Shown: one piece after another, positions 26,520 through 45,768 of the stretch
Layout of the letters: each line of letters begins with the position of its first letter
Position numbering within the stretch: position 1 is the first letter of the stretch
NCBI RefSeq assembly: GCF_003790525.1
Contig: NZ_CP033635.1
Length of the DNA stretch: 64,000 nucleotides
DNA from: Escherichia coli
GTDB lineage: Bacteria; Pseudomonadota; Gammaproteobacteria; Enterobacterales; Enterobacteriaceae
Strand: one strand, 5' to 3'
Translations under genes and position numbers: made by a program
The notes under the pieces: generated by a model
Databases searched by the model: none
What the model saw: the letters and a program-made list of their open reading frames with translations, nothing else
What the model was told of the DNA's origin: nothing

Positions 26520-26800
26520 GAGCAACATGATGCTACGATTCATTTCACTCTTCGTTCTTTCTGAGCATTGCGTTCAGGATGGTCAGCAATTTACGCATAC
26601 AGTCAACCAGCGCCACTTTTTTGGTTTTTCCGGCTGCTGGCAGATGCATGTAAAACGCCTTTATCACCGGATTAAACCAGGTTACCACAAGCGCTGCCAT
26701 GTGCAGGGCTGCTCTTGCCTCCGTACGCGCACTGGCGTCGTTCGGCCAGCAGATATGTGTGGGATAACAGGGATGTTATGTGAACTGAACTGTGTTTTGT
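26520..26800 (-). mobile_element. IS110-family transposase 3' fragment (remnant)
   Basis: Minus-strand translation ...[43 protein letters not shown] resembles the conserved C-terminus of IS110-family transposases; N-terminal part absent. Confidence 0.55.
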
Positions 26801-26881
26801 TAGCGGGGGATGTTTATTGATGATTCGGGAGTGTTTAAGACCTGATGGCGTTATGCTCCCAAGTTTATTTTATATAAAGAT

Positions 26882-26912
26882 CCAAAAGCAAAAACCCGCC
26901 TTGTGGGCGGGT
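26882..26912 (-). terminator. rho-independent terminator downstream of the tRNA-Phe 3' end
   Basis: Stem CCCGCC/GGCGGG (26895-26910) followed on the minus strand by a T-run. Confidence 0.6.
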
Positions 26913-26925
26913 TCTTAAGAATTAG

Positions 26926-26975
26926 TGGTGCCCGGACTCGGAATCGAACCAAGGACACGGGGATTTTCAATCCCC
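26926..26975 (-). other. pheV: 50-nt 3' fragment of tRNA-Phe (acceptor/T-arm through anticodon-stem region): island junction direct repeat
   Basis: Minus strand reads ...GGGGATTGAAAATCCCCGTGTCCTTGGTTCGATTCCGAGTCCGGGCACCA, matching the 3' ~50 nt of tRNA-Phe as I recall it; 5' part of the tRNA is replaced by unrelated/degenerate sequence. Confidence 0.75.
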
Positions 26976-27068
26976 ATGTCATAAAATTCAGATAGTTACG
27001 GGCATGTCAAGTTGTTGTCGAAGTCTTTCATGCGCATCCGATCACATAACTGTCGATAGGACGCAGAT

Positions 27069-27947
27069 ATGAAAATACTTCCCGTTGTCTCAACAAAAGG
27101 TGGCGAAGGTAAATCAACACAATCCGCTAACCTGGCTGGTTTTCTCGCCGATGCAGGTATCCGTACCCTGCTGATTGACGGAGATCATGCTCAGCCCACG
27201 GCAAGCAACATCTTTCCGCTGACATATGAAGCGTCAGCCGGTCTTTTTGAGTTGCTGATGCGCACGGCTGACCTCAGTTATCCCGATAACATCATTTCCC
27301 GCACAGCTATCGACGGACTCGATCTGATAGTCTCCAATGACCCTCATGAGCAGTTAAAAACTGCGATGCTTCACGCCCCGGATGGTCGTCTGCGCCTCCG
27401 GAATGTCCTGCAGCATCCGCTTTTTCTGAACAACTACGATGTCATTATAGTTGATTCTCAGGGTGCGCGTTCTGTCATGCTCGAAATGATTGTGCTGTCG
27501 GCCACTGATTCGGTTGTCGGGATGGTCAATCCGGTACTCCCTGATGTGCGCGAGTTTATTCGCGGCACTGTCAACGTTATGGAGAACCTGCTGCCTTACC
27601 GGGAACTGGGGATACCCCTGCCGAAAGTACGCACGCTGGTTAACTGCATGGATTATACGGCACTGGCCAGGAAGACGCTGGATGAGCTGGCCGGAATTAT
27701 TCAGACCGGTCGTTACAGCAGGCAGTTACCTGAAGGTGCGGTTTCCCTTCTTTCCACACAGATTTACGACCTGAATATTTACAAGCAGGGGCATGCGGCT
27801 GGTCAACCCGTACATCGTCTCGAAAAAGAATCCACACGTCGCAGTGATTCCGCGCTTGTCACGATGCACAGCCTGGCCTGTGAACTATTTCCTGAGTGGA
27901 AACAGGCGTTTGACGGGCTACTGGCTAACGGGGGAATACGTCAGTGA
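27069..27947 (+). CDS. parA: ParA/Soj-family partition ATPase (ICE end-proximal)
   Basis: 292 aa; deviant Walker A KGGEGKST; first gene inside the island next to the tRNA fragment, as in PAPI-1-type ICEs. Confidence 0.85.
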   Translation: MKILPVVSTKGGEGKSTQSANLAGFLADAGIRTLLIDGDHAQPTASNIFPLTYEASAGLFELLMRTADLSYPDNIISRTAIDGLDLIVSNDPHEQLKTAMLHAPDGRLRLRNVLQHPLFLNNYDVIIVDSQGARSVMLEMIVLSATDSVVGMVNPVLPDVREFIRGTVNVMENLLPYRELGIPLPKVRTLVNCMDYTALARKTLDELAGIIQTGRYSRQLPEGAVSLLSTQIYDLNIYKQGHAAGQPVHRLEKESTRRSDSALVTMHSLACELFPEWKQAFDGLLANGGIRQ

Positions 27948-32049: not shown

Positions 32050-32773
32050 TGATGCAGCACGTCAGGAGCAACTGATTAAACGGATAAGAAAACTGCTGGC
32101 GCTGAGCCGGAATAACAGTAATCCCCATGAGGCAGGTCAGGCTCTTTCCCGCGCACAGGCGCTGATGCGGAAGCATGGTATCACCGAACTGGATGCTGAT
32201 ATTTCGGTGATAAAAACCTCATCATCAAAGGGAGCACCGTCAGAAGCGGAAAAAGTTCCGGTATGGATGGGGCGTCTTATGAATGTTGTTGCAGGGGCAT
32301 TCGGATGCCATACATACCTGGATTGGCGTATCACAACCGGAGGATACTGGCGGCGGATTGTCACATTTTATGGTTTTGGGGAGCGTCCGGTTGTGGCTGC
32401 GTATGCCTTTGATGTTCTCTGCCGGCAGATGCAAAAGGCGACAAAAGAGTATCTCTCAACCCAGAGCCGGAAATTAAAACACTCAACCCGTCGTGCAAGA
32501 GCTGCGATGTTTCGTGACGGCTGGGTTTATGGGGTGCGTGATGTGGTGGATGCATTCCGGCTCACGGAAGATGAGACGCGTGTAATGAATACGTGGCTGC
32601 AGAACCAGCAATTTGAGGGAATGGTCGTCTTCCGGGAGGTAAAGGACTGCCATGGCGGTGACCATGCACGCTGGCAGGGATACAACGAGGGGAAAAAGGC
32701 AACGCTGAATCACGGTGTTGGTTCCCGGGATCTGAGACCGGAAAGCCTGATATCAGGCGGAGGTGAGGTATGA
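32042..32773 (+). CDS. conserved ICE hypothetical protein
   Basis: Start at ATG 32042 (MNNDAARQ) overlapping parB stop; the longer track ORF from 31907 is an upstream read-through. Confidence 0.6.
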   Translation: MNNDAARQEQLIKRIRKLLALSRNNSNPHEAGQALSRAQALMRKHGITELDADISVIKTSSSKGAPSEAEKVPVWMGRLMNVVAGAFGCHTYLDWRITTGGYWRRIVTFYGFGERPVVAAYAFDVLCRQMQKATKEYLSTQSRKLKHSTRRARAAMFRDGWVYGVRDVVDAFRLTEDETRVMNTWLQNQQFEGMVVFREVKDCHGGDHARWQGYNEGKKATLNHGVGSRDLRPESLISGGGEV

Positions 32774-33348
32774 GTAATAACTTGTCACAGGCCACCAACG
32801 GACTGTTGATGCAGCTGGTGATGGATCTCAAAAGTGGCTATCTGCGCCGCTGTGAAGCGCTGGGGCTTTCCCGGGAAGAAATGCAGATGCTGCAGGGGCT
32901 GAGTATTGAGGAAATTCACTATCTGTCAAATTCAGAGGTGTCAGTGCTGCGGCTGGATATTAACCACAATAACCTTGTACGCATGCTGCAGCAGGCCAGG
33001 ACTGAACAGAAACGCCTGCAGCGAATCGATCGCGCTCTTGCACTGGGGGGATCGATTGAACTCATGGCGTTTTATTTTGGCCTTTCCAGTGTGGACGTTG
33101 CAGCACGGCGCCGTATTTCAGGAATTGATGTGCGCCCGGGGCGGGGTATCACACTCAGCGATGATGAAAACTCTGAACTCTGGAGACTGTGGCAGAAAGC
33201 AGGGATTAACGATGTGGAGAGCGCTGACGGGCTGGACGTCATGATGCTCTGTGCAGAGCAGATGAATATCCCGCTCACGGCCGTCTGGCATGCTGTCAGG
33301 GGGTGGCATACAGCCGGAAGCCCTGAACAGGTAAGGAATGCGTCATGA
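32770..33348 (+). CDS. conserved ICE hypothetical protein
   Basis: 192 aa; ATGA start/stop overlap with neighbours. Confidence 0.55.
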   Translation: MSNNLSQATNGLLMQLVMDLKSGYLRRCEALGLSREEMQMLQGLSIEEIHYLSNSEVSVLRLDINHNNLVRMLQQARTEQKRLQRIDRALALGGSIELMAFYFGLSSVDVAARRRISGIDVRPGRGITLSDDENSELWRLWQKAGINDVESADGLDVMMLCAEQMNIPLTAVWHAVRGWHTAGSPEQVRNAS

Positions 33349-33593
33349 AGATGAAAGAGCTGGTTCCCGGTCTGCTGAGCTGTCCCGGGGTACCGCCAGC
33401 CTGCCAGCGGAAGGCGGTGGACCTCGTTAACCGGTTTCGTCGCGGGGAGAGGAATTACCATGAACTGAAGGAAAAGGGATTCGGGTATATCAAGATTAAT
33501 GTTGGTCCGGACTGGCGGTTACTGAGCAGGAACCGGGGACAAACCTGGGCGCTGTTGAGTCACGAGCGATACAACAATATGAGACTGAGGTAG
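33345..33593 (+). CDS. small hypothetical protein (cargo cluster gene 1)
   Basis: 82 aa; ATGA overlap with upstream gene. Confidence 0.5.
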   Translation: MKMKELVPGLLSCPGVPPACQRKAVDLVNRFRRGERNYHELKEKGFGYIKINVGPDWRLLSRNRGQTWALLSHERYNNMRLR

Positions 33594-33599
33594 AGCAAA

Positions 33600-33776
33600 A
33601 TGACTGATTTTGGTTCAACTAAATATAACGCCAGTTTTGAAGAATGGCATGAAGTGTTAATGGACTATGCCGGGTTACGTGGTGGAAGTGCCGCCGATGC
33701 CGAAGCATGGCGCGATGACTATGAAGCTGGAAAAACGCCTGTCGAAGCATATTGCGATGAGTGGGGTGATGAATGA
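33600..33776 (+). CDS. small acidic hypothetical protein, 58 aa (below the ORF-track size cutoff)
   Basis: ATG 33600 to TGA 33774-33776, translated MTDFGSTKYNASFEEWHEVLMDYAGLRGGSAADAEAWRDDYEAGKTPVEAYCDEWGDE; stop overlaps next start (ATGA at 33773). Confidence 0.5.
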   Translation: MTDFGSTKYNASFEEWHEVLMDYAGLRGGSAADAEAWRDDYEAGKTPVEAYCDEWGDE

Positions 33777-33985
33777 GCAAAATTGACTATCAGGAGCTGC
33801 GTGAGGCGGCAGAAAAGGCAATGCATGACGACTGGGGATTTGACACGGACCTTTTCTATGAGCTGGTAGAACCATCGATTGTGCTGGCTCTGCTGGATGA
33901 ATGCGAGACGCTGGCAACTGAGAATGCGAAGCTGAAGACAGCACACCCTCAACTGTTCGGGAAAGCTGAAGGAGCGACAAAATGA
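33773..33985 (+). CDS. small protein with Ead/Ea22-like N-terminal motif (MSKIDYQELRE)
   Basis: 70 aa; shares N-terminal motif with the 34190 gene. Confidence 0.55.
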   Translation: MSKIDYQELREAAEKAMHDDWGFDTDLFYELVEPSIVLALLDECETLATENAKLKTAHPQLFGKAEGATK

Positions 33986-34203
33986 GCAAGCCAACCGACG
34001 AAGAAATAGTTCGGGTGTTGGAAGAACACGGGCGCTGTATGACTTACGTCGTGACCAACTGGCTTAGGGATAAATATCGCACACTCAAAACGGCATACGT
34101 TTTGCGTCGTCTAAAGAAACTGGAGTTCGACGGGAAAGTAAAGCGCGTTAACAGTTCTTATATAAGACAAATTTGCTGGGAGGCAACCAGTGAGCGAGAT
34201 TGA
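33982..34203 (+). CDS. small basic hypothetical protein (possible DNA-binding)
   Basis: 73 aa; overlapping start/stop in operon. Confidence 0.5.
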   Translation: MSKPTDEEIVRVLEEHGRCMTYVVTNWLRDKYRTLKTAYVLRRLKKLEFDGKVKRVNSSYIRQICWEATSERD

Positions 34204-34789
34204 TTATCAGGCGCTACGGGAACGTTATTCACCTAAGCCAGTACCTGAATGCTCTGTTTGTGGCGAGGAAATGTCAATACAGCGCATATCTGGAGCACAT
34301 GTTGTTTATGCCTGTTCCGGTGAGGGTGATGACGGATATTTTAAGATAGGGCGTACTTTTGCAGACGAACATTATGAAGAATCACGCGTAACAGTAGTTG
34401 ATGATAGTGATCCCGATGTGATTGCACTACTGGACGAACTGGAGGCAGCAAAATCAAAACTCAACGAGCAGCGTGAATATTACGAGGGAGTAATCGCGGA
34501 TGGGAGTAAGCGTATTGCAGAACTGGAAGCACGGGAAATAAAACCAGCCAAAGGCGAAGTTCTTGTCGTTGTATCTGGTTTTACTGGTTGCGGAAAAAGC
34601 GCCATTGCCGGGGAAATAGAAATCGCGATGAAGGCTATTGGTGTGCCGGTTCTATGGACTAATGGCGATGCGGAAAAGCGCATGACAGGAGCTGACTGGC
34701 TGACAGCGATTGAGATGTACAAACCAAATGTGCGCATCGTGGAAGTTAATGTGCCACGCGTCGCTGGCATTCGCACCAAAGGAGAGTGA
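34190..34789 (+). CDS. Ead/Ea22-like prophage-type protein (assignment from memory of the N-terminal motif)
   Basis: 199 aa; N-terminus MSEIDYQALRE, CxxC...C zinc-ribbon-like segment, coiled-coil middle. Confidence 0.55.
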   Translation: MSEIDYQALRERYSPKPVPECSVCGEEMSIQRISGAHVVYACSGEGDDGYFKIGRTFADEHYEESRVTVVDDSDPDVIALLDELEAAKSKLNEQREYYEGVIADGSKRIAELEAREIKPAKGEVLVVVSGFTGCGKSAIAGEIEIAMKAIGVPVLWTNGDAEKRMTGADWLTAIEMYKPNVRIVEVNVPRVAGIRTKGE

Positions 34790-34790
34790 T

Positions 34791-35306
34791 ATGGCGTTAA
34801 CACACCGCGAACTCTGTCAGATTGCGTACAAGTTCCTTAAGCGCAACGGGTTCAAGGTTTGTTTTCATGACCGCTTTATAGCTGTAACCAGTACCGGAGA
34901 GCAGCCAGATGCTATGGGATTCAGAAATTCAGCATCATGCCTGATAGAGGCGAAATGTTCTCGTGCTGACTTGTTGGCAGATAGAAAAAAGCGTTTTCGT
35001 AAAAATCCATCTCTTGGAATGGGCGACTGGCGATTCTTTATTAGTGAGCCGGGAATTATTTCAATTGAGGATTTACCACCTGGCTGGGGATTACTTCACG
35101 TTGTTAACGGAAGAGTACGGAAAGTACATGGGTGGCCCAGGGGTAATTGCTGTTGGGGTAATCCTGACGATAAGCCATTTACTGGAAATAAGCAGGTTGA
35201 ATGCGATTACATGTTATCTGCATTAAGGCGCATGGAGTTGAGAGGGCACCTTAATGAAATATATGACGGTGTAATTGTTAATAAGAAAGAAGGAAACGCA
35301 GCATGA
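34791..35306 (+). CDS. hypothetical protein with PD-(D/E)xK nuclease-like motif
   Basis: 171 aa from ATG 34791 with GGAGAG SD; motif ...EQPDAMGF...CLIEAKCS... Confidence 0.5.
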   Translation: MALTHRELCQIAYKFLKRNGFKVCFHDRFIAVTSTGEQPDAMGFRNSASCLIEAKCSRADLLADRKKRFRKNPSLGMGDWRFFISEPGIISIEDLPPGWGLLHVVNGRVRKVHGWPRGNCCWGNPDDKPFTGNKQVECDYMLSALRRMELRGHLNEIYDGVIVNKKEGNAA

Positions 35307-35701
35307 TCACTATTACCAAAGAGCGACTGCTGACAATCCAGCAGTGGCGCGAAACATACGGACCTGGTAGCAACGTTGTATTGCCAGCAGAAGAAGCGGA
35401 AGAACTGGCACGAATTGCACTGGCATTGCTGGAAGCAGAACCGCTGGTGCCCGTCATGTATAAAGGAATGAAACTGTTAACAAAAGAGGGGCTTGAGCTT
35501 ATTCGTGACGGTATTGCTGAGGCTACAGGACTGGAAGCAATGTGTATGGCTGAGGCTTTGCTGTCTGGGGCGTCAGTGCCGTCAGTGCCAGAAGAAATGT
35601 ATTGGCAGGATGCGCCTGTTGGAGGCAGTAGCAAAGCAGCTGCATACGCGACAGGCTGGAATGCCTGTCGCGCCGCAATGCTTCAGGGAAAAGGAAAGTG
35701 A
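35303..35701 (+). CDS. hypothetical protein, paralog A of a shared N-terminal module
   Basis: 132 aa; first ~45 aa nearly identical to the 36134 gene. Confidence 0.55.
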   Translation: MITITKERLLTIQQWRETYGPGSNVVLPAEEAEELARIALALLEAEPLVPVMYKGMKLLTKEGLELIRDGIAEATGLEAMCMAEALLSGASVPSVPEEMYWQDAPVGGSSKAAAYATGWNACRAAMLQGKGK

Positions 35702-35702
35702 T

Positions 35703-35924
35703 ATGGCTAACTCGTTACTTGAAACCTGCAACAACTGGCAGATTCAGAGGGCGGAGATTTTATCTCGCAATCCAGATATGGCAATGACAATTGATAATCT
35801 GGACACGCTAATTGAACGGACCGTGCGTTCTGCAATTGATATAGCACATCGAGTGGATTGGGATTTCAGAGAAGCGGAGCGGCTTGCTAAAGAGCAGGAG
35901 AAAGCAGCGGGTAAAGGAGACTGA
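35703..35924 (+). CDS. small hypothetical protein
   Basis: 73 aa from ATG 35703 (MANSLLETC); track ORF 35493 is an upstream extension. Confidence 0.5.
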   Translation: MANSLLETCNNWQIQRAEILSRNPDMAMTIDNLDTLIERTVRSAIDIAHRVDWDFREAERLAKEQEKAAGKGD

Positions 35925-35925
35925 T

Positions 35926-36123
35926 ATGGATAAAAACACCACTGCTTACTGGAATCTGTCACTTGATACCGAATGCCCAAAATGCGGTCACAATTTCGAT
36001 CTGCTTTGTGATCCAGATTTCTGGGAATTTTCTGGAGCAAAACAGGCATGTGAAGAAATAAAAGGTTACGAAACATGCTGTCCAGAATGTAACCATGAAT
36101 TTAAAACAGATTTTGTGTATTGA
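35926..36123 (+). CDS. small zinc-ribbon protein (CPKCG...CCPECNH)
   Basis: 65 aa from ATG 35926; two CxxC pairs. Confidence 0.5.
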   Translation: MDKNTTAYWNLSLDTECPKCGHNFDLLCDPDFWEFSGAKQACEEIKGYETCCPECNHEFKTDFVY

Positions 36124-36133
36124 GGCATAACAA

Positions 36134-36547
36134 ATGACCACTATAACCAAAGAGCGACTGCTGACAATCAAGCAGTGGCGCGAAACATACGGACCGGGTA
36201 GCAACGTTGTACTGCCAGCAGAAGAAGCGGAAGAACTGGCACGGATTGTACTGGCATCGCTGGAAGCGGAACCGGTGGCGTGGATGTGTGATGACGAAGA
36301 TGGTCGTGAATATAACGGTCATAACGAGTTTTCTTATGGAAGACGCGGGATTCCCCTTTACGCCGTCCCGCCAGCGCCGAATGGATTGGTTAAAGCCGTA
36401 GCTTTCTATGAGCAGGTTAAACGTGAAAATCCGCCAGTTGAAACGGGAGCATGGAAAGACGCCGTTGACTGGGTGCTTAAACAAGCTTGTCAGGCTGTAA
36501 ACACTGGCATCAATGAAAGAAGAACAATTGAAGAAAATGATGATTGA
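36134..36547 (+). CDS. hypothetical protein, paralog B of a shared N-terminal module
   Basis: 137 aa; N-terminal ~45 aa shared with the 35303 gene, C-terminus unrelated. Confidence 0.55.
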   Translation: MTTITKERLLTIKQWRETYGPGSNVVLPAEEAEELARIVLASLEAEPVAWMCDDEDGREYNGHNEFSYGRRGIPLYAVPPAPNGLVKAVAFYEQVKRENPPVETGAWKDAVDWVLKQACQAVNTGINERRTIEENDD

Positions 36548-36595
36548 GCCGGAAGCAGCAAAAAAGCGCATTGCAGAACTGGAGGAGCGCCGGTC

Positions 36596-36811
36596 ATGAG
36601 AAAAATCAGTGGAATGTTGAACCTGGAGAAGGCCAGGATGCAGTTGCGTGTTTTGTTATCAGGACCGGTTCCTGCGATCACTCCGATGTCGCATGCCGTG
36701 GCAATTAAAGTTGTGCCTGATGCTCCGGATGCGAGTGAGCGGAGGGTGGCTGAACTGGAACAGGCCTGCGCTGCCGCGGGCATTCGTATCAAAGGGGAAC
36801 AAGTGAAATGA
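36596..36811 (+). CDS. small hypothetical protein
   Basis: 71 aa; operon context. Confidence 0.45.
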   Translation: MRKISGMLNLEKARMQLRVLLSGPVPAITPMSHAVAIKVVPDAPDASERRVAELEQACAAAGIRIKGEQVK

Positions 36812-37029
36812 AACTGAAGATGCAGGCAATGGACGGCCCGGTGATTATAGAGAGTAGTGATGTGACACAGTTTTACCCTGACCATGAAAGTGGCGGGGAA
36901 CTCACCGCTGTTGAGTACCTTGCTGACGGGGGAAGAATCACCGCGAGGGTGAGTCACTCTTTTTATCAGGTTGCTGCGGCACTTGCCGGGGCATGGCGTG
37001 CGGATGATGCATCAAAAAGCGGTGGGTGA
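36808..37029 (+). CDS. small hypothetical protein
   Basis: 73 aa; ATGA overlap with upstream gene. Confidence 0.45.
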   Translation: MKLKMQAMDGPVIIESSDVTQFYPDHESGGELTAVEYLADGGRITARVSHSFYQVAAALAGAWRADDASKSGG

Positions 37030-37289
37030 GGACTGTGCCGGAATGATTGTCTGTTCCGAAGCTGCTGAACCGCGACATAAATTTTTTATGTTGCGGTGAA
37101 GCAGCCGGCAAACGAAGAGCGTCAGCGTATCAACAGTTAAGGAAAATATCTTCTGAAGCCGGACGCGACAGTCAGTCCGGTGGTGCTCGTGTGGTGAAGT
37201 GTTTAGCCTGCATCTTTGACAGGGTTCAGTTATAAGCATTTCGGAAACCGTTCCCCGGCGCAGTCTGCCGGGATTTAAGGAGTTTATTT

Positions 37290-38555
37290 ATGGCGCTACC
37301 TGCAGAAAGCCTTATTGCGCATACGCTCAGAAAAATGAAGGCCAGCATGGCAGAGAAAGCCAGTCGTGAGGACGGGAGGATACGCAGTGGGCTGTTGTTT
37401 ACCGGCAATGTTCACGATTCGTATCCCCGCAGGCTGTTGCTGGATACGCGCCTTTCTCCCCTTGATAAAACTGCGTGGATGATGATTCGTCTGCATGCCC
37501 TGAATAATGAGGGCGCAGTATTTCCGACGTACGATGAACTGCAGTTACAACTGGCATCTCCCGGGTGCGGGAAGGCGTCCCGTGAAACAGTGAGCCGGGT
37601 GCTGACAATGCTGCGGCTTACGGGCTGGCTGAGTCTGTGTAAGCGGGTCAGGGATGAAAAAGGGCGGGTCCGGGGGAATATTTACGCCCTGCATGATGAG
37701 CCACTGACCTGCTGTGATGCAGAAAAGTTTGACCCACGATACCTGGATATGGTTCTGGATACTGTGAGCAGGAGCCGGAACAAGACAATCCGGCACACAG
37801 CCAGTGAAGTGCTCAGTGATATCAAAAATGAGCCCGGTATGCGGCATTACCACAGCCATATCACTCTGTTTGAATCGCGTATGGGGGCAGCACAGACACC
37901 TGGTCAGCTGGCGGCGCGTCAGCGGGTGAACCCGATGGTGAATGAAAACACAGGCAGAGAGAGTGGTTCGGATTCCGTACATACCCCTGCACCTGTCGTG
38001 CAGGTAACCGAACTCAGTGCTCCGTTAACCGAACTCAGTGAAAAACAGGAAATGAGCCCACTCAGTTCGGATTCCGTACCGCCTGAAAAATCAGTAACTT
38101 ATCACTCGGTTCGGAAACCGAACAATTACGTACGTAATATCACACACAGTGTGATTAAAAATACGTACGTATTGCCTGAGTCGGTGAAATCGCAAATCAG
38201 CACAGAAGACACGGACATGCTGACAAAACAACTGCAGGCGTTGCCGGAAGAACTGGCAGGTAGTGTGCTGAGCAGCCTGTCACAGATGCTCAGCAAAAAC
38301 ACGCTCCAGAATCCGGTTGGCTGGATGCTGGCTGTGATGAAACGTGCGCGTGAGGGAAGTTTTAATACGCCGGATATGTCCGTGCATGAATCCCGGTCGC
38401 CAGCCCGTGCACCATATCAGCCTGTGTACAACCGTGATGAACGTGAACGTCGTCGCAGGAAAGTGGCGTCACCTGAAACGGTGAGCAACATTGTCGCAGA
38501 ATTCCGTGCCAGCCTGAAACGTGCAAATGCTGCCCGTCTGGCGGCGCGTGTTTGA
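37290..38555 (+). CDS. putative ICE replication/regulatory protein (winged-helix-like N-terminal region), adjacent to repeat array
   Basis: 421 aa; stop lies 2 nt before the 36-bp repeat array; resembles pathogenicity-island replication proteins in position. Confidence 0.55.
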   Translation: MALPAESLIAHTLRKMKASMAEKASREDGRIRSGLLFTGNVHDSYPRRLLLDTRLSPLDKTAWMMIRLHALNNEGAVFPTYDELQLQLASPGCGKASRETVSRVLTMLRLTGWLSLCKRVRDEKGRVRGNIYALHDEPLTCCDAEKFDPRYLDMVLDTVSRSRNKTIRHTASEVLSDIKNEPGMRHYHSHITLFESRMGAAQTPGQLAARQRVNPMVNENTGRESGSDSVHTPAPVVQVTELSAPLTELSEKQEMSPLSSDSVPPEKSVTYHSVRKPNNYVRNITHSVIKNTYVLPESVKSQISTEDTDMLTKQLQALPEELAGSVLSSLSQMLSKNTLQNPVGWMLAVMKRAREGSFNTPDMSVHESRSPARAPYQPVYNRDERERRRRKVASPETVSNIVAEFRASLKRANAARLAARV

Positions 38556-38556
38556 T

Positions 38557-39384
38557 GGTTAAAAATCGTACGGTGTTGGCAGTGCCAACAGTGGTTAAAA
38601 ATTGTGCGGTGTTGGCAGTGCCAACAGTGATTAAAAAATGTACGGTGTTGGCAGTGCCAACAGTGGTTAAAAATTGCGCGGTGTTGGCAGTGCCAACAGC
38701 GGTTAAAAAGTGTACGGCGTTGGCAGTGCCAACAGTGATTGAAAAATGTACGGTGTTGGCAGTGCCAACAGTGATTAAAAAATGTACGGTGTTGGCAGTG
38801 CCAACGGTGATTAAAAAATGTACGGTGTTGGCAGTGCCAACAGTGGTTAAAAATTGCGCGGTGTTGGCAGTGTCAACAGTGGTTAAAAATTGTGCGGTGT
38901 TGGCAGTGCCAACAGTGATTAAAAAATGTACGGTGTTGGCAGTGCCAACAGTGGTTAAAAATTGCGCGGTGTTGGCAGTGCCAACAGCGGTTAAAAAGTG
39001 TACGGCGTTGGCAGTGCCAACAGTGATTGAAAAATGTACGGTGTTGGCAGTGCCAACAGTGATTAAAAAATGTACGGTGTTGGCAGTGCCAACGGTGATT
39101 AAAAAATGTACGGTGTTGGCAGTGCCAACAGTGGTTAAAAATTGCGCGGTGTTGGCAGTGCCAACAGTGGTTAAAAATTGTGCGGTGTTGGCAGTGCCAA
39201 CAGTGATTAAAAAATGTACGGTGTTGGCAGTGCCAACAGCGGTTAAAAAGTGTACGGCGTTGGCAGTAGCAACAGCGATTAAAAAATGTACGGTGTTGCC
39301 AGTGGCAACAGTGGTTAAAAAGTGTCCGGCGTTGCCAGTGGCAACAGTGTTTGAAAATTGTACTGAGTTGGCACTGCCAACATG
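38557..39384. repeat. array of 23 tandem 36-bp direct repeats, each with a 17-bp palindrome TGTTGGCAGTGCCAACA (iteron/centromere-like)
   Basis: Directly counted units of 36 bp from 38557; higher-order periodicity of 288 bp (8 units); last units degenerate. Confidence 0.9.
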
Positions 39385-39486
39385 ACGTAATTTCAGTCAT
39401 TCCTTTTTTTATTTTTGATTGTCAGATCTCCGTCTGCAGGCTGACTATTTCAGCCCGATATCCTTTTCTTTTGCCGGAGATATAAC

Positions 39487-42559: not shown

Positions 42560-42725
42560 TGCTTTGCAGCCAACCAATCTCCCGGTGGTCTGAGAGGGAG
42601 GCTTACGCGACCACACTGTCATCTTCGGATGACCAGCCAATGTTCCAGCAGTCTGAGAGGAGCGCCTTCGGGTGACTGCCAGCCAATGTTTCAGCGATCT
42701 GAGAGAAACGCCTTCGGGTGATTGC
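42560..42725 (+). repeat. three imperfect direct repeats (~45-60 bp) each ending in a UUCG-tetraloop hairpin
   Basis: Units contain CAGCCAA...TCTGAGAG...(CATC TTCG GATG or CGCC TTCG GGTG). Confidence 0.6.
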
Positions 42726-42937
42726 AATATCCTCGTAGCCTGAAAGGGGATGCCTTTATGGCGGTACATCCGTTTAGCCTCTGGGAACGGATATCACCAC
42801 TGGTGATTGAGGTACGTTTAACTGCACAGACAGCCGGAAATTCAGCTGATTCCGGCATCCCCGACGGGAACTATCACTCCCGTCAGGGCTGGTGATGTTC
42901 TCCGTCATATCTTTTTTTACTCCATGGAGAAATCATC

Positions 42938-44321: not shown

Positions 44322-45290
44322 GTGAGTGAAAAAGTTAACAAAATCACTATGATTCATGACGGGGCGTTCAAGAAGACGCTTGAAGATCCCGCCGCAGTAA
44401 GGGACTTTCTTGAACAGGTCTTGACACACGATCAGATATCCCGCTGTAATCTTGATACAATAGAAGTTGAAAAGAATTCGTTCGTGACGGAAAGTTTGCG
44501 TCAGCATGCCTGTGATGTTTTGATCAGCATGAAGACAAACGACGGCAGGGACGGATACATTTATACCTTAATCGAGCACCAGAGTTCGCCGGATAAATTC
44601 ATCCCGCTGCGTATGATGCGATATATCCTGGCTGTAATGGAGCAACATGTTGAAAAGCATAAGTGTGCACCTGTGGTGATCCCCGTGTTGTTTTATCATG
44701 GTGCAATGCGGCCATATCCGTATCCGCTGAACTGGGTGGATTGTCTGGATGACCCGGAGTACGGACGGGAGATTTATGGCGAGTCAAAGTCATTCAGTCT
44801 GGTGGATGTCAGTACGCTTGATGATGATGAAATTGAGCAGTATCGCCGGATGGCGGCGCTGATGTACACCATGAAGTCCGGAACTCAAGGTGATTTGATT
44901 GAGCTGATTGGTAAATCGATCACACTGACGGATAAGTATGGCAGTAGCATTCACCTGAATACGGTGCTTACTTATCTGATGGAACTTTACCAGATGGATG
45001 TTGCTGAACTTTTTGAAGCAATATCCACACACTATCCCAGCCATAAGGGGGTGATTATGACGATAGCGGAACAACTGGAAGAGAAAGGTCGGGTTGAAGG
45101 TCTGGAGAAAGGCCTTGAGAAAGGCCTTGAGAAAGGCCGTGCTGAAGGCCGTGCTGAAGAGCGTCAAAAAGCGCTTGCAGAAACTTATGCATCTGTCCGT
45201 CGCATGAGCGATATGGGGATGTCAACGGAAGTTATTAAGCAGGCACTTCATCTTTCTGATGAACAGATTCAGGAAGCGCTTAATAATTAA
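44322..45290 (+). CDS. Rpn (YhgA-like) family recombination-promoting nuclease
   Basis: GTG start at 44322 with GGAGG SD; N-terminal segment HDGAFKKTLEDPAAVRDFLE...GYIYTLIEHQSS resembles E. coli RpnA-E as recalled; the track ORF from 44043 is an upstream extension overlapping ssb. Confidence 0.7.
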   Translation: MSEKVNKITMIHDGAFKKTLEDPAAVRDFLEQVLTHDQISRCNLDTIEVEKNSFVTESLRQHACDVLISMKTNDGRDGYIYTLIEHQSSPDKFIPLRMMRYILAVMEQHVEKHKCAPVVIPVLFYHGAMRPYPYPLNWVDCLDDPEYGREIYGESKSFSLVDVSTLDDDEIEQYRRMAALMYTMKSGTQGDLIELIGKSITLTDKYGSSIHLNTVLTYLMELYQMDVAELFEAISTHYPSHKGVIMTIAEQLEEKGRVEGLEKGLEKGLEKGRAEGRAEERQKALAETYASVRRMSDMGMSTEVIKQALHLSDEQIQEALNN

Positions 45291-45768
45291 CCTCGCATCG
45301 TAATGATGTGGCAGAGCGCGACTGATGCGTCAGAACGTGTGATGCCCTGTGAACACAGCGCCTGCCATTGTGCAGGCGTTTTTTTATCAATCAGTCTGGT
45401 AAATTGTGATGGAACTTTACCAGATGGATTTTGCTGAACTTTCTGAAGCAATATTCACACACTATCCCAGCCACAAGGGGGTGATTATGACGATAGCGGA
45501 ACAACTGGAAGAGAAAGGCCTTGAGAAAGGCCGTGCAGAAGAGCGTCAAAAAGCGCTTGCAGAAACCTATGCATCTGTCCGTCGCATGAGTGATATGGGG
45601 ATGTCAACAGAAGTTATTAAGCAAGCTCTTCAGCTTTCTGATGAACAGATTCAGGAAGCGCTTAATAATTAACCTCACATCGTAATGATGTGGCAGAGCG
45701 CGACTGATGCGTCAGAATGCGTGATGCCCTGTGAACACAGCGCCTGCCATTGTGCAGGCGTTTTTTTT
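44979..45768 (+). repeat. near-tandem direct duplication (~0.36-0.41 kb per copy) of the rpn 3' end plus terminator
   Basis: Copy 1 44979-45385, copy 2 45409-45768; both end in hairpin GCCTGCCATTGTGCAGGC plus T-run. Confidence 0.85.
45409..45672 (+). CDS. stand-alone duplicate of the Rpn C-terminal domain (87 aa, RpnS-like)
   Basis: Near-identical to the last ~100 codons of the upstream rpn gene, with a short internal deletion of GLEKG repeats; own ATG; own terminator copy. Confidence 0.6.
   Translation: MELYQMDFAELSEAIFTHYPSHKGVIMTIAEQLEEKGLEKGRAEERQKALAETYASVRRMSDMGMSTEVIKQALQLSDEQIQEALNN

Follow-up and report, generated by a model that had tools for sequence, protein, structure and literature searches.

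A repeated 145-bp gene head in an Escherichia coli integrative conjugative element, a probable N-terminal module and recombination joint of mosaic phage accessory genes

Two small genes that begin almost identically and end differently lie close together on the plus strand of Escherichia coli contig NZ_CP033635.1 (assembly GCF_003790525.1), within a stretch of 64,000 nucleotides referred to here as the window, in an integrative conjugative element (ICE). A repeat search placed two direct copies of a 145-nt sequence at window positions 35303-35447 (head copy A, the reference copy) and 36134-36278 (head copy B), 831 nt apart from start to start and identical at 135 of 145 positions (93%). This pair was the sole long repeat within 33000-37500, and for a match of this length and identity in 64 kb, chance is excluded. 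Copy A encodes residues 1-48 of orfA (132 aa; 35303-35701, plus strand; MITITKERLLTIQQWRETYGPGSNVVLPAEEAEELARIALALLEAEPL) and copy B residues 1-48 of orfB (137 aa; 36134-36547, plus strand). In the alignment of the two loci, identity begins at the ATG and collapses past codon 48, and BLASTP of the two proteins matched 43 of the first 48 residues (E = 5e-28), with the remainder not alignable. A preliminary description had placed the copies by eye at 35306-35445 and 36137-36276, with ~93% identity and a shared starting peptide, and was essentially correct: the similarity is neither shorter nor weaker than that estimate. Our preferred reading, to which we assign a probability of about 0.75, is that orfA and orfB are paralogous members of an EaA/DUF551-type family that were brought into the ICE within an exo-xis/ea-like block of phage genes, and that the head acts as a recombination joint.

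Both open reading frames (ORFs) look like real genes. The start codon of orfA overlaps the stop codon of the gene upstream (ATGA), orfB is preceded by a GAGG ribosome-binding site 9 nt before its start codon, and the whole block forms a tight same-strand gene array with overlapping starts and stops. These overlaps and Shine-Dalgarno sites, together with full-length relatives that have the same ends and matches to PHROG families, are the grounds for reading them as genes. For orfA the matches were to phrog_60, phrog_3323, phrog_660 and phrog_5117, the head-family matches (phrog_60, phrog_3323 and phrog_660) covering residues 1-48 and beyond. For orfB they were to phrog_660 (E = 3e-43) and, on its C-terminal module, to phrog_26213; this module also matched the C-terminal part of phrog_250 (residues 41-130, E = 2e-7). 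A Pfam search with both proteins returned no match even at E ≤ 10, DUF551 (PF04448) and Ead_Ea22 (PF13935/IPR025153) included. On these sequence comparisons, orfA and orfB are head-sharing relatives of DUF551 proteins that are not themselves DUF551 proteins.

The Prokaryotic Genome Annotation Pipeline (PGAP), as seen in the annotation of NZ_CP032265, instead lists 35303-35437 and 36134-36268 as pseudogenes ("incomplete, missing C-terminus") and the Upf89.0-like gene as "frameshifted". Taken at face value, these calls would make both heads the remains of truncated DUF551 genes and their tails non-coding read-through, and it is the case that neither ORF has a DUF551 domain, while relatives of orfA are mostly 200-230 aa long and continue past a linker into DUF551 (PF04448). 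The ORFs of the flagged genes are nonetheless intact in the window and have strong PHROG matches, and both head genes are translationally coupled to their neighbors. Full-length relatives of orfB are numerous (124-165 aa, from E. coli and Salmonella) and keep 18 invariant columns, and short forms similar to orfA, ending in ...AMLQGKGK or ...AMLHGKGE, recur at other loci (P0382, P0400, P0357, P0460, L037 and L088). Moreover, 24 complete E. coli chromosomes, of which many come from poultry, carry the 5.8 kb around both heads at 100% identity; on the same observation, an assembly artefact was rejected as the source of the two-head layout. The pseudogene calls can be accounted for by the best matches, longer DUF551 proteins, which align over the head only, and they are probably a systematic mis-annotation of mosaic genes. 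Decay of both genes is hence improbable.

Beyond the head, orfA consists of a rare middle segment (LVPVMYKGMKLL...) and a common VPEEMYWQDAP...GWNACRAAMLQ module followed by the stop codon, whereas orfB has a different middle (VAWMCDDEDGREYN...IPLYAVPPAP) and a conserved C-terminal module (GLVKAVAFYEQVKRENPPVETGAWKDAVDWVLKQACQAVN). The preliminary description held that the two proteins diverge completely after the head. This is accurate at the level of BLAST, but a common family architecture becomes visible once relatives are aligned: both tails have a variable middle, a Pro-rich "VP" linker and a helical end module with a W..AC.A motif. Tails across the family are mosaics of the same kind, combining a variable middle, the Pro-rich linker, one of two end modules and, optionally, a DUF551 domain. 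Among the relatives of orfB, the C-terminal module is near-invariant and holds most of the invariant columns, and the middles are hypervariable. At the DNA level, the orfA end module (35574-35686, plus strand), which is common to DUF551 genes of Shiga toxin (Stx) phages, is 86% identical to its counterparts at eight other loci (L002, L011, L016, L021 and L032-L035). The orfB C-terminal module (36383-36513, plus strand) is a shuffled cassette with BLAST identities of 83-87% to L086, L087 and L089, and in sister ICEs it sits behind heads of the Ead/Ea22 type (ORFs at 1783-2097 of L086 and 1793-2494 of L089).

The head itself is widespread. An exhaustive search of representative sequences found it in 567 protein clusters at 50% identity (402 of them at E ≤ 1e-10), under source-database names such as EaA, Eaa and "DUF551 domain-containing protein". 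In the top 150 clusters it is 81-96% identical and occupies residues 1-48 in all but a few proteins, which range from 60 to 418 aa in length. As no two of these proteins share a 50% cluster, their sequences differ outside the head, and the segment directly after the head belongs to 47 unrelated types among 107 representatives. Head homologs with other tails in other genomes, which had been put forward as a check on the preliminary description, are thus abundant. Tail diversity was taken from this search since a short-query protein search gave only proteins of ≤90 aa. Both copies belong to the family, whose consensus (MTTITKERLL..WRETYGPGSNVVLPAEEAEELARIALASLEAEP) they match along with hundreds of clusters at 85-100% identity. 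At least five alternative head cores (canonical, MTELTKEQL.., ..ELFIKNP.., ..IKSFITGF.. and ..EWLQQTI..) occur in the family, all of which keep an MTxxT start and an "(I/L)ALASLEAEP" end, and a sixth was seen in phage contig L037. The head was also detected in 185 phage records, including Stx1 and Stx2 phages, P22-like phages, P1/P7 and a Yersinia phage, and in 277 plasmid records; the matches in both span residues 1-26 only, as tblastn masked the low-complexity half of the head. Of the plasmids, 268 are non-mobilizable and ~90-110 kb long, and in both class and size they are typical of P1-like phage-plasmids. Viral contigs contributed at least 542 matching stretches, the closest 80 of which were compared in detail.

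Across 231 pairs of loci differing in both upstream and downstream type, mean DNA identity is 0.25-0.35 upstream of the head, 0.92-1.00 at +11 to +130, and ~0.3 from +146 onward. The head is a box-shaped, sharply bounded island of DNA identity (94-100% across loci) with unrelated flanks. One possible explanation is that the 145 bp are conserved for a function in DNA or RNA, such as an antisense promoter, an operator or a structured RNA, and that the coding similarity is secondary. A consensus scan did identify sigma-70-like sites on the minus strand of both heads (36167-36140, 10/12 positions; 35336-35309, 9/12). However, promoter-like sites in the region are within chance (7 found vs 5.5 expected), and the variation follows the reading frame: variable sites among 36 distinct head DNAs fall at codon positions 1, 2 and 3 in a 6/7/20 ratio, with a ratio of non-synonymous to synonymous polymorphism (pN/pS) of 0.13. 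Divergent heads from Klebsiella and Citrobacter (65-80% amino acid identity) also retain the protein pattern, and no Rfam family matches there. Conservation for a DNA or RNA element is therefore very improbable, and the codon pattern shows the head to be a protein module under purifying selection at the protein level, not merely a site of DNA recombination. Both AlphaFold2 models agree in predicting a two-helix hairpin for it (helices at residues 6-19 and 29-45 in copy A, 6-19 and 28-44 in copy B), with medium confidence for orfB (pLDDT 74) and poor confidence for orfA (pLDDT 49, usable for secondary structure only).

Two copies in the same orientation only 831 bp apart would ordinarily bring to mind a local tandem duplication of one gene in the island, with rapid divergence of the 3' halves thereafter. 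The comparison with heads from elsewhere speaks against such an origin. The identity between copies A and B (93%; 10 nt differences, ~5 synonymous and ~4 non-synonymous by the Nei-Gojobori method) is not above that between heads of unrelated phages (mean 94.6%). The tails cannot be aligned although the heads are 93% identical, and close relatives of either tail are found at other loci, attached to heads. Furthermore, the left neighbors match different phages (Upf89.0 for copy A, a zinc-ribbon gene for copy B), and the interval between the copies contains two unrelated genes. A local duplication is highly improbable on this evidence; the repeat is instead the N-terminal module of the lambdoid/P22/P1 EaA/DUF551-type family, present twice. 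Concerted evolution between the two copies was likewise considered and rejected, their divergence being equal to that between phages.

Evidence that recombination takes place at the head came from sister ICEs, which have a conserved backbone and variable cargo at the head site. Two of these, L084 (NZ_CP182371) and L085 (NZ_CP190349), match the window at 98-99% identity on either side, and their alignments cover window positions 34436/34762-35447 and 36134-38555, overlapping by exactly the 145-nt head. Each carries a single head gene and is without the 831-bp interval (orfA tail, a 73-aa gene and the zinc-ribbon gene). This single gene has the upstream context of orfA, a head that is A-type in its 5' part and B-type in its 3' part, and the tail of orfB. 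At the 10 sites that distinguish copies A and B, the first three in L084 are A-type and the last seven B-type, which places the switch within a 25-bp block of identity (window 35339-35365); in L085 the switch lies one block earlier. Both products are intact, in-frame ORFs of 137 aa. Three further genomes share the coverage pattern of L085 (coverage only). These features are the signature of a crossover between the two heads, within identical blocks of 24-25 bp, which explains both the single-head ICE genes and the loss of 831 bp. Identical blocks of 24-31 bp come close to the shortest homology on which RecA-dependent recombination is reported to act in E. coli.

The direction of the event may be read in two ways. 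A homologous crossover within one of the blocks that the two heads share would produce an in-frame chimera and an 831-bp deletion, converting the two-head layout to a single-head one in one intramolecular event. Alternatively, the single-head ICE might be ancestral, and a phage segment comprising tail A, the 73-aa gene, the zinc-ribbon gene and a head might have been inserted at its head. The chimeric single-nucleotide pattern is symmetric as to direction, and the interval with its flanking modules is found in phage contigs L037 and L045 at 98.5% identity, as an insertion would have it. An insertion requires two crossovers or a two-head donor, however, where deletion requires one event, and the different switch points in L084 and L085 are more easily explained by independent deletions. 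Deletion is also favored by the existence of the two-gene layout in phages: positions 3001-5091 of L037 (IMG/VR 2778261352_000001) have the same four-gene layout as window 35303-36547. The second family member in this contig has another head core (MTTFTKEQLIEMIK...IALASLEAEP) and a DUF551 end, and because its two heads are divergent, a deletion of the kind proposed for the ICE could not occur there. We consider insertion rather unlikely; under deletion and insertion alike, the head remains a recombination substrate.

The preliminary description took the constant head and variable tail as a sign of cassette exchange by recombination within the cluster. Recombination is well supported: the head is the joint for variable tails, as seen in the chimeras of L084 and L085 and in the 10 upstream and 21 tail types among 90 head copies, and head and middle types are found in all combinations. 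Through the head, the commonest upstream gene (type U0, of the Upf89.0 family, which accounts for most copies) is combined with 17 tail types, and for several tails two or three upstream types were recorded. Exchange within the cluster did not hold up, in that recombination between direct repeats deletes the 831-bp interval and exchanges nothing; the swapping takes place at the level of populations, among phages, phage-plasmids and ICEs.

A programmed switch that alternates tails on one expressed head within the cell can be given next to no weight for similar reasons. Shufflons and invertible tail-fiber cassettes (Rci, Gin/Cin/Min) rely on inverted repeats and a dedicated site-specific recombinase for reversible in-cell switching. 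The locus resembles them superficially in having a constant 5' coding part and alternative 3' parts. However, its repeats are direct, the repeat search found no inverted repeats of ≥18 nt within 33000-37500, and no site-specific recombinase gene was found among the cluster genes by PGAP annotation or PHROG matches. Both heads come with a start codon and ribosome-binding site of their own, recombination between the copies would be an irreversible deletion, and the 24 genomes share an identical arrangement. A diversity-generating retroelement was also rejected as a candidate: the annotated 41-kb locus has no reverse-transcriptase gene, and only 2 of the 10 differences between the heads have an A in copy A, scattered through the head.

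The genes around the two heads point to a phage origin. Between a left backbone flank (a DUF2857 gene and a ParE-like gene; 32770-33593, plus strand; constant across ICE variants, from the PGAP annotation of an identical locus) and a STY4528-family replication gene on the right (37290-38555, plus strand; NF040582, 391.9 bits, cutoff 130) lie about ten small genes, all of which match phage-only PHROGs and several of which are named ead/Ea22-like. Those at 33773-33985 and 34190-34789 (plus strand, with a 73-aa gene between them) have Ead/Ea22-like PGAP names and match phrog_250/368/1138. They are followed by a 171-aa gene of the P7 Upf89.0 family (34791-35306, plus strand; phrog_9263, E = 8e-123), the usual left neighbor of head-bearing genes in phages. 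The interval between orfA and orfB holds a 73-aa gene (35703-35924, plus strand; phrog_10585, E = 1e-42), absent from L084 and L085 and found in the same layout in L037 and L045, and a 65-aa zinc-ribbon gene (CxxC...CxxC; 35926-36123, plus strand; phrog_4173, E = 9e-28, with a weak YnfU-family match). The latter is the left neighbor of head B, immediately precedes the EaA head in P22-like phages (96%), and is lost in single-head variants. Stx1 phage AU5Stx1 and P7 share the order of Ead/Ea22-like gene, 171-aa Upf89.0-like gene and head gene with ATGA overlap, so that the head genes have the position, downstream of Ead/Ea22-like and Upf89.0-like genes, expected of an exo-xis/ea-type block. By gene content and order, the block is in all likelihood a piece of lambdoid exo-xis/ea-type accessory DNA inside the ICE.

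A 17-nt sequence at the gene boundaries (AAAGGAGAGTGATATGG; Shine-Dalgarno site, stop and start; 34778-34794, plus strand) recurs at 35690-35706 and 35913-35929. These three matches (≤2 mismatches) compare with 0.02 expected and lie at the borders of the between-head cassettes, and the copy at the Upf89.0 border is conserved in 73 of 91 loci. The linker gives many genes in the block an ending of ...KGE or ...GKGK, and it appears to be a second kind of joint beside the head. The genes at 33773-33985 and 34190-34789 start with an N-terminal motif of their own (MSxIDYQxLRE; MSKIDYQELRE and MSEIDYQALRE) and differ downstream, and look like a second family with constant head and variable tail. A 20-codon mini-ORF (MMIEPEAAKKRIAELEERRS; 36537-36599) bridges orfB and the next gene through stop/start overlaps. 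The DNA that encodes its "KRIAELE" recurs over 20 nt, at 95% identity, within the Ea22-like gene (34508-34527), and the mini-ORF may be a remnant of another Ea22-type module.

From its gene content, the host element is an ICE of the SPI-7/pKLC102-PAGI-2/ICEEc2 type, possibly ICEEc2 itself. Left of the block are genes for a SPI-7-type DnaB (NF040583, 685.5 bits, cutoff 655), a PFGI-1-type ICE ParB (TIGR03764, 379.1 bits, cutoff 143.75), ParA and DUF2786 proteins, and to its right are genes for topoisomerase III, Ssb, TraD and TIGR037xx conjugation proteins, with TraD and the TIGR037xx genes identified on the PGAP annotation of a locus 99.4-99.7% identical to the window from 26916 onward. The left end of the ICE lies near 26916, beside kpsF/kpsE-like genes, and similarity to AR_0089 starts at this position. 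To the left of the boundary, the window has kpsF/kpsE-like capsule genes and AR_0089 an integrase and a pap island. PGAP annotates a 78-nt "tRNA-Ser" in AR_0089 at what corresponds to ~26916-27003; ARAGORN found no tRNA in the whole window, and Rfam found none in 26700-27200.

Several other repeats and RNA elements were observed in the window. Directly after the STY4528-family gene, a 36-bp tandem repeat is present in 23 copies (38556-39382; 89% matches), which may also be read as a repetitive ORF of 277 aa (38552-39385). Alignments overlapping across this array suggest that its copy number differs between the window and AR_0089, and the ICE may use the array as iterons or as an origin. A full-length STAXI RNA (RF01728, 139 bits; 42617-42770) lies between the topoisomerase III and STY4534/ssb genes, where it overlaps 46-nt repeats (42570-42724). 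In the ICE segment whose counterpart in AR_0089 is an Rpn-family nuclease gene, 44977-45767 contains two direct-repeat pairs (257 nt at 95% and 153 nt at 85%, with a spacing of 382-430 nt) and, at 45081-45159, tandem repeats of 12 and 24 nt. In the chromosomal part left of the ICE, we found the Hfq-binding small RNA isrN (17137-17279, 124 bits) and a JUMPstart element (4256-4294, 54 bits).

Taken together, the preferred reading is that a block of exo-xis/ea-like phage genes carrying both head genes would have entered a SPI-7/pKLC102-type ICE, where the two heads could then recombine. Several points weigh against it or narrow its scope. That the ICE event was a deletion and not an insertion is an inference. 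At the DNA level, a four-gamete test of upstream and tail types across the 90 head copies gave no complete quartet. At the protein level, three heads (canonical, MTELT and ELFIK) and two middles (orfA-type and orfB-type) occur in all six combinations and give complete quartets, in a set that is biased toward relatives of orfA and orfB. The viral loci are the closest matches, so that their identity values and pN/pS describe the near-identical core of the family, and some of the 50% clusters are fragments or frameshift variants (e.g., P0128), so that truly distinct tails are fewer than the raw counts. Lastly, NCBIfam, Pfam and PDB sequence profiles were empty for orfA and orfB, with no known domain to give a function, and PADLOC returned nothing for eight cluster proteins including these two.

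As to what such proteins might do, the head may be a constant docking or oligomerization module that presents exchangeable target-binding modules, and by analogy with Ea22 and YfdS/YfdT the proteins could be non-essential early modulators of the host, for which the lysogeny decision, replication or counter-defense might apply. A bolder proposal is that the EaA-head family is a combinatorial effector system whose joints (the 145-bp head, the Pro-rich "PLYAAPPAPVVP" linker, the C-terminal modules and the 17-nt gene-boundary linker) are kept for cassette swapping and whose variable cassettes bind fast-evolving host targets, e.g., defense proteins. We regard this as unlikely; if it were true, hypervariable middle cassettes would pass back and forth between lambdoid phages, P1-like phage-plasmids and ICEs, and the block in the ICE would be an array for counter-defense or host takeover at early entry. 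The preferred reading, of phage-derived paralogs with the head as recombination joint, has more immediate implications. The locus is an unusually clean, base-resolved case of a mosaic phage accessory gene being rebuilt via an in-frame 145-bp crossover site, and it shows that the lambdoid exo-xis/ea gene pool extends to a conjugative island found in extra-intestinal E. coli from birds and humans. It also illustrates an annotation error, probably systematic, by which intact mosaic genes are called pseudogenes from head-only best matches. A large family built on one head, with hundreds of tail types by raw count, is furthermore a sensible target for screens of early phage and ICE genes.

Comparison with known systems places these findings within familiar territory. 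Mosaicism of lambdoid phages with conserved short boundary sequences at module joints was reportedly described by Juhala and colleagues in 2000 and, for HK620, by Clark and colleagues in 2001. The locus shares with it the sharp change from near-identical to unrelated DNA wherever a gene or domain ends, and the 17-nt linker at gene borders. It differs in that the joint falls within coding sequence and is a protein module under selection, and in that the gene pool reaches an ICE. EaA of P22, Upf89.5 of P7 and the gp11-type proteins of Stx phages have the same 48-aa head (85-96% identity), an Upf89.0-like left neighbor with ATGA overlap, and the GWNACRAAMLQ module, whereas orfA and orfB end before DUF551 and reside in an ICE. 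Our literature searches on EaA, EaD and P22 found nothing relevant, and those on Ea22-like proteins found nothing on the 48-aa head.

The only members of the head family with any phenotype are yfdS and yfdT of the CPS-53 prophage, where overexpression inhibits replication initiation only if YfdQR is accompanied by YfdS (DUF551) or YfdT (PMC4776307). YfdT of E. coli K-12 resembles the proteins described here in its MTTFT... start and its "...IALVSLEVEP" junction, and its tail (DEREAYELFMEKR) is joined to a canonical head in P0229. The core of its head is divergent, however, and no evidence was found for an action of orfA or orfB on DnaA or replication.

The closest parallel is Ea22, encoded in the exo-xis region of lambda and Stx phages, whose genes are non-essential in lambda (PMC10695390). 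Ea22 proteins are mosaics of a shared N-terminal segment with a coiled coil and dissimilar C-terminal domains (Goddard et al. 2024, PMC10834534); Ea22 promotes lysogeny, and DUF551 has been termed a portable domain (PMC10834534). In the window as in phages, Ead/Ea22-like genes are immediately upstream of the heads, both families combine a constant N-terminus with exchangeable C-terminal domains, among them DUF551 as a portable one, and the orfB C-terminal module is also found behind Ead/Ea22 heads. On the other hand, the head of orfA and orfB is a different sequence (no Ead_Ea22 Pfam match), the proteins are much smaller and without a long coiled coil, and the pro-lysogenic effect has been reported for Ea22 only. 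What is new here is the scale of documentation for this head, the base-resolved recombinant in sister elements and the ICE as host; in other respects, the locus is a clear but ordinary instance of phage gene mosaicism that works like the early-left accessory genes of lambdoid phages, specifically Ea22.

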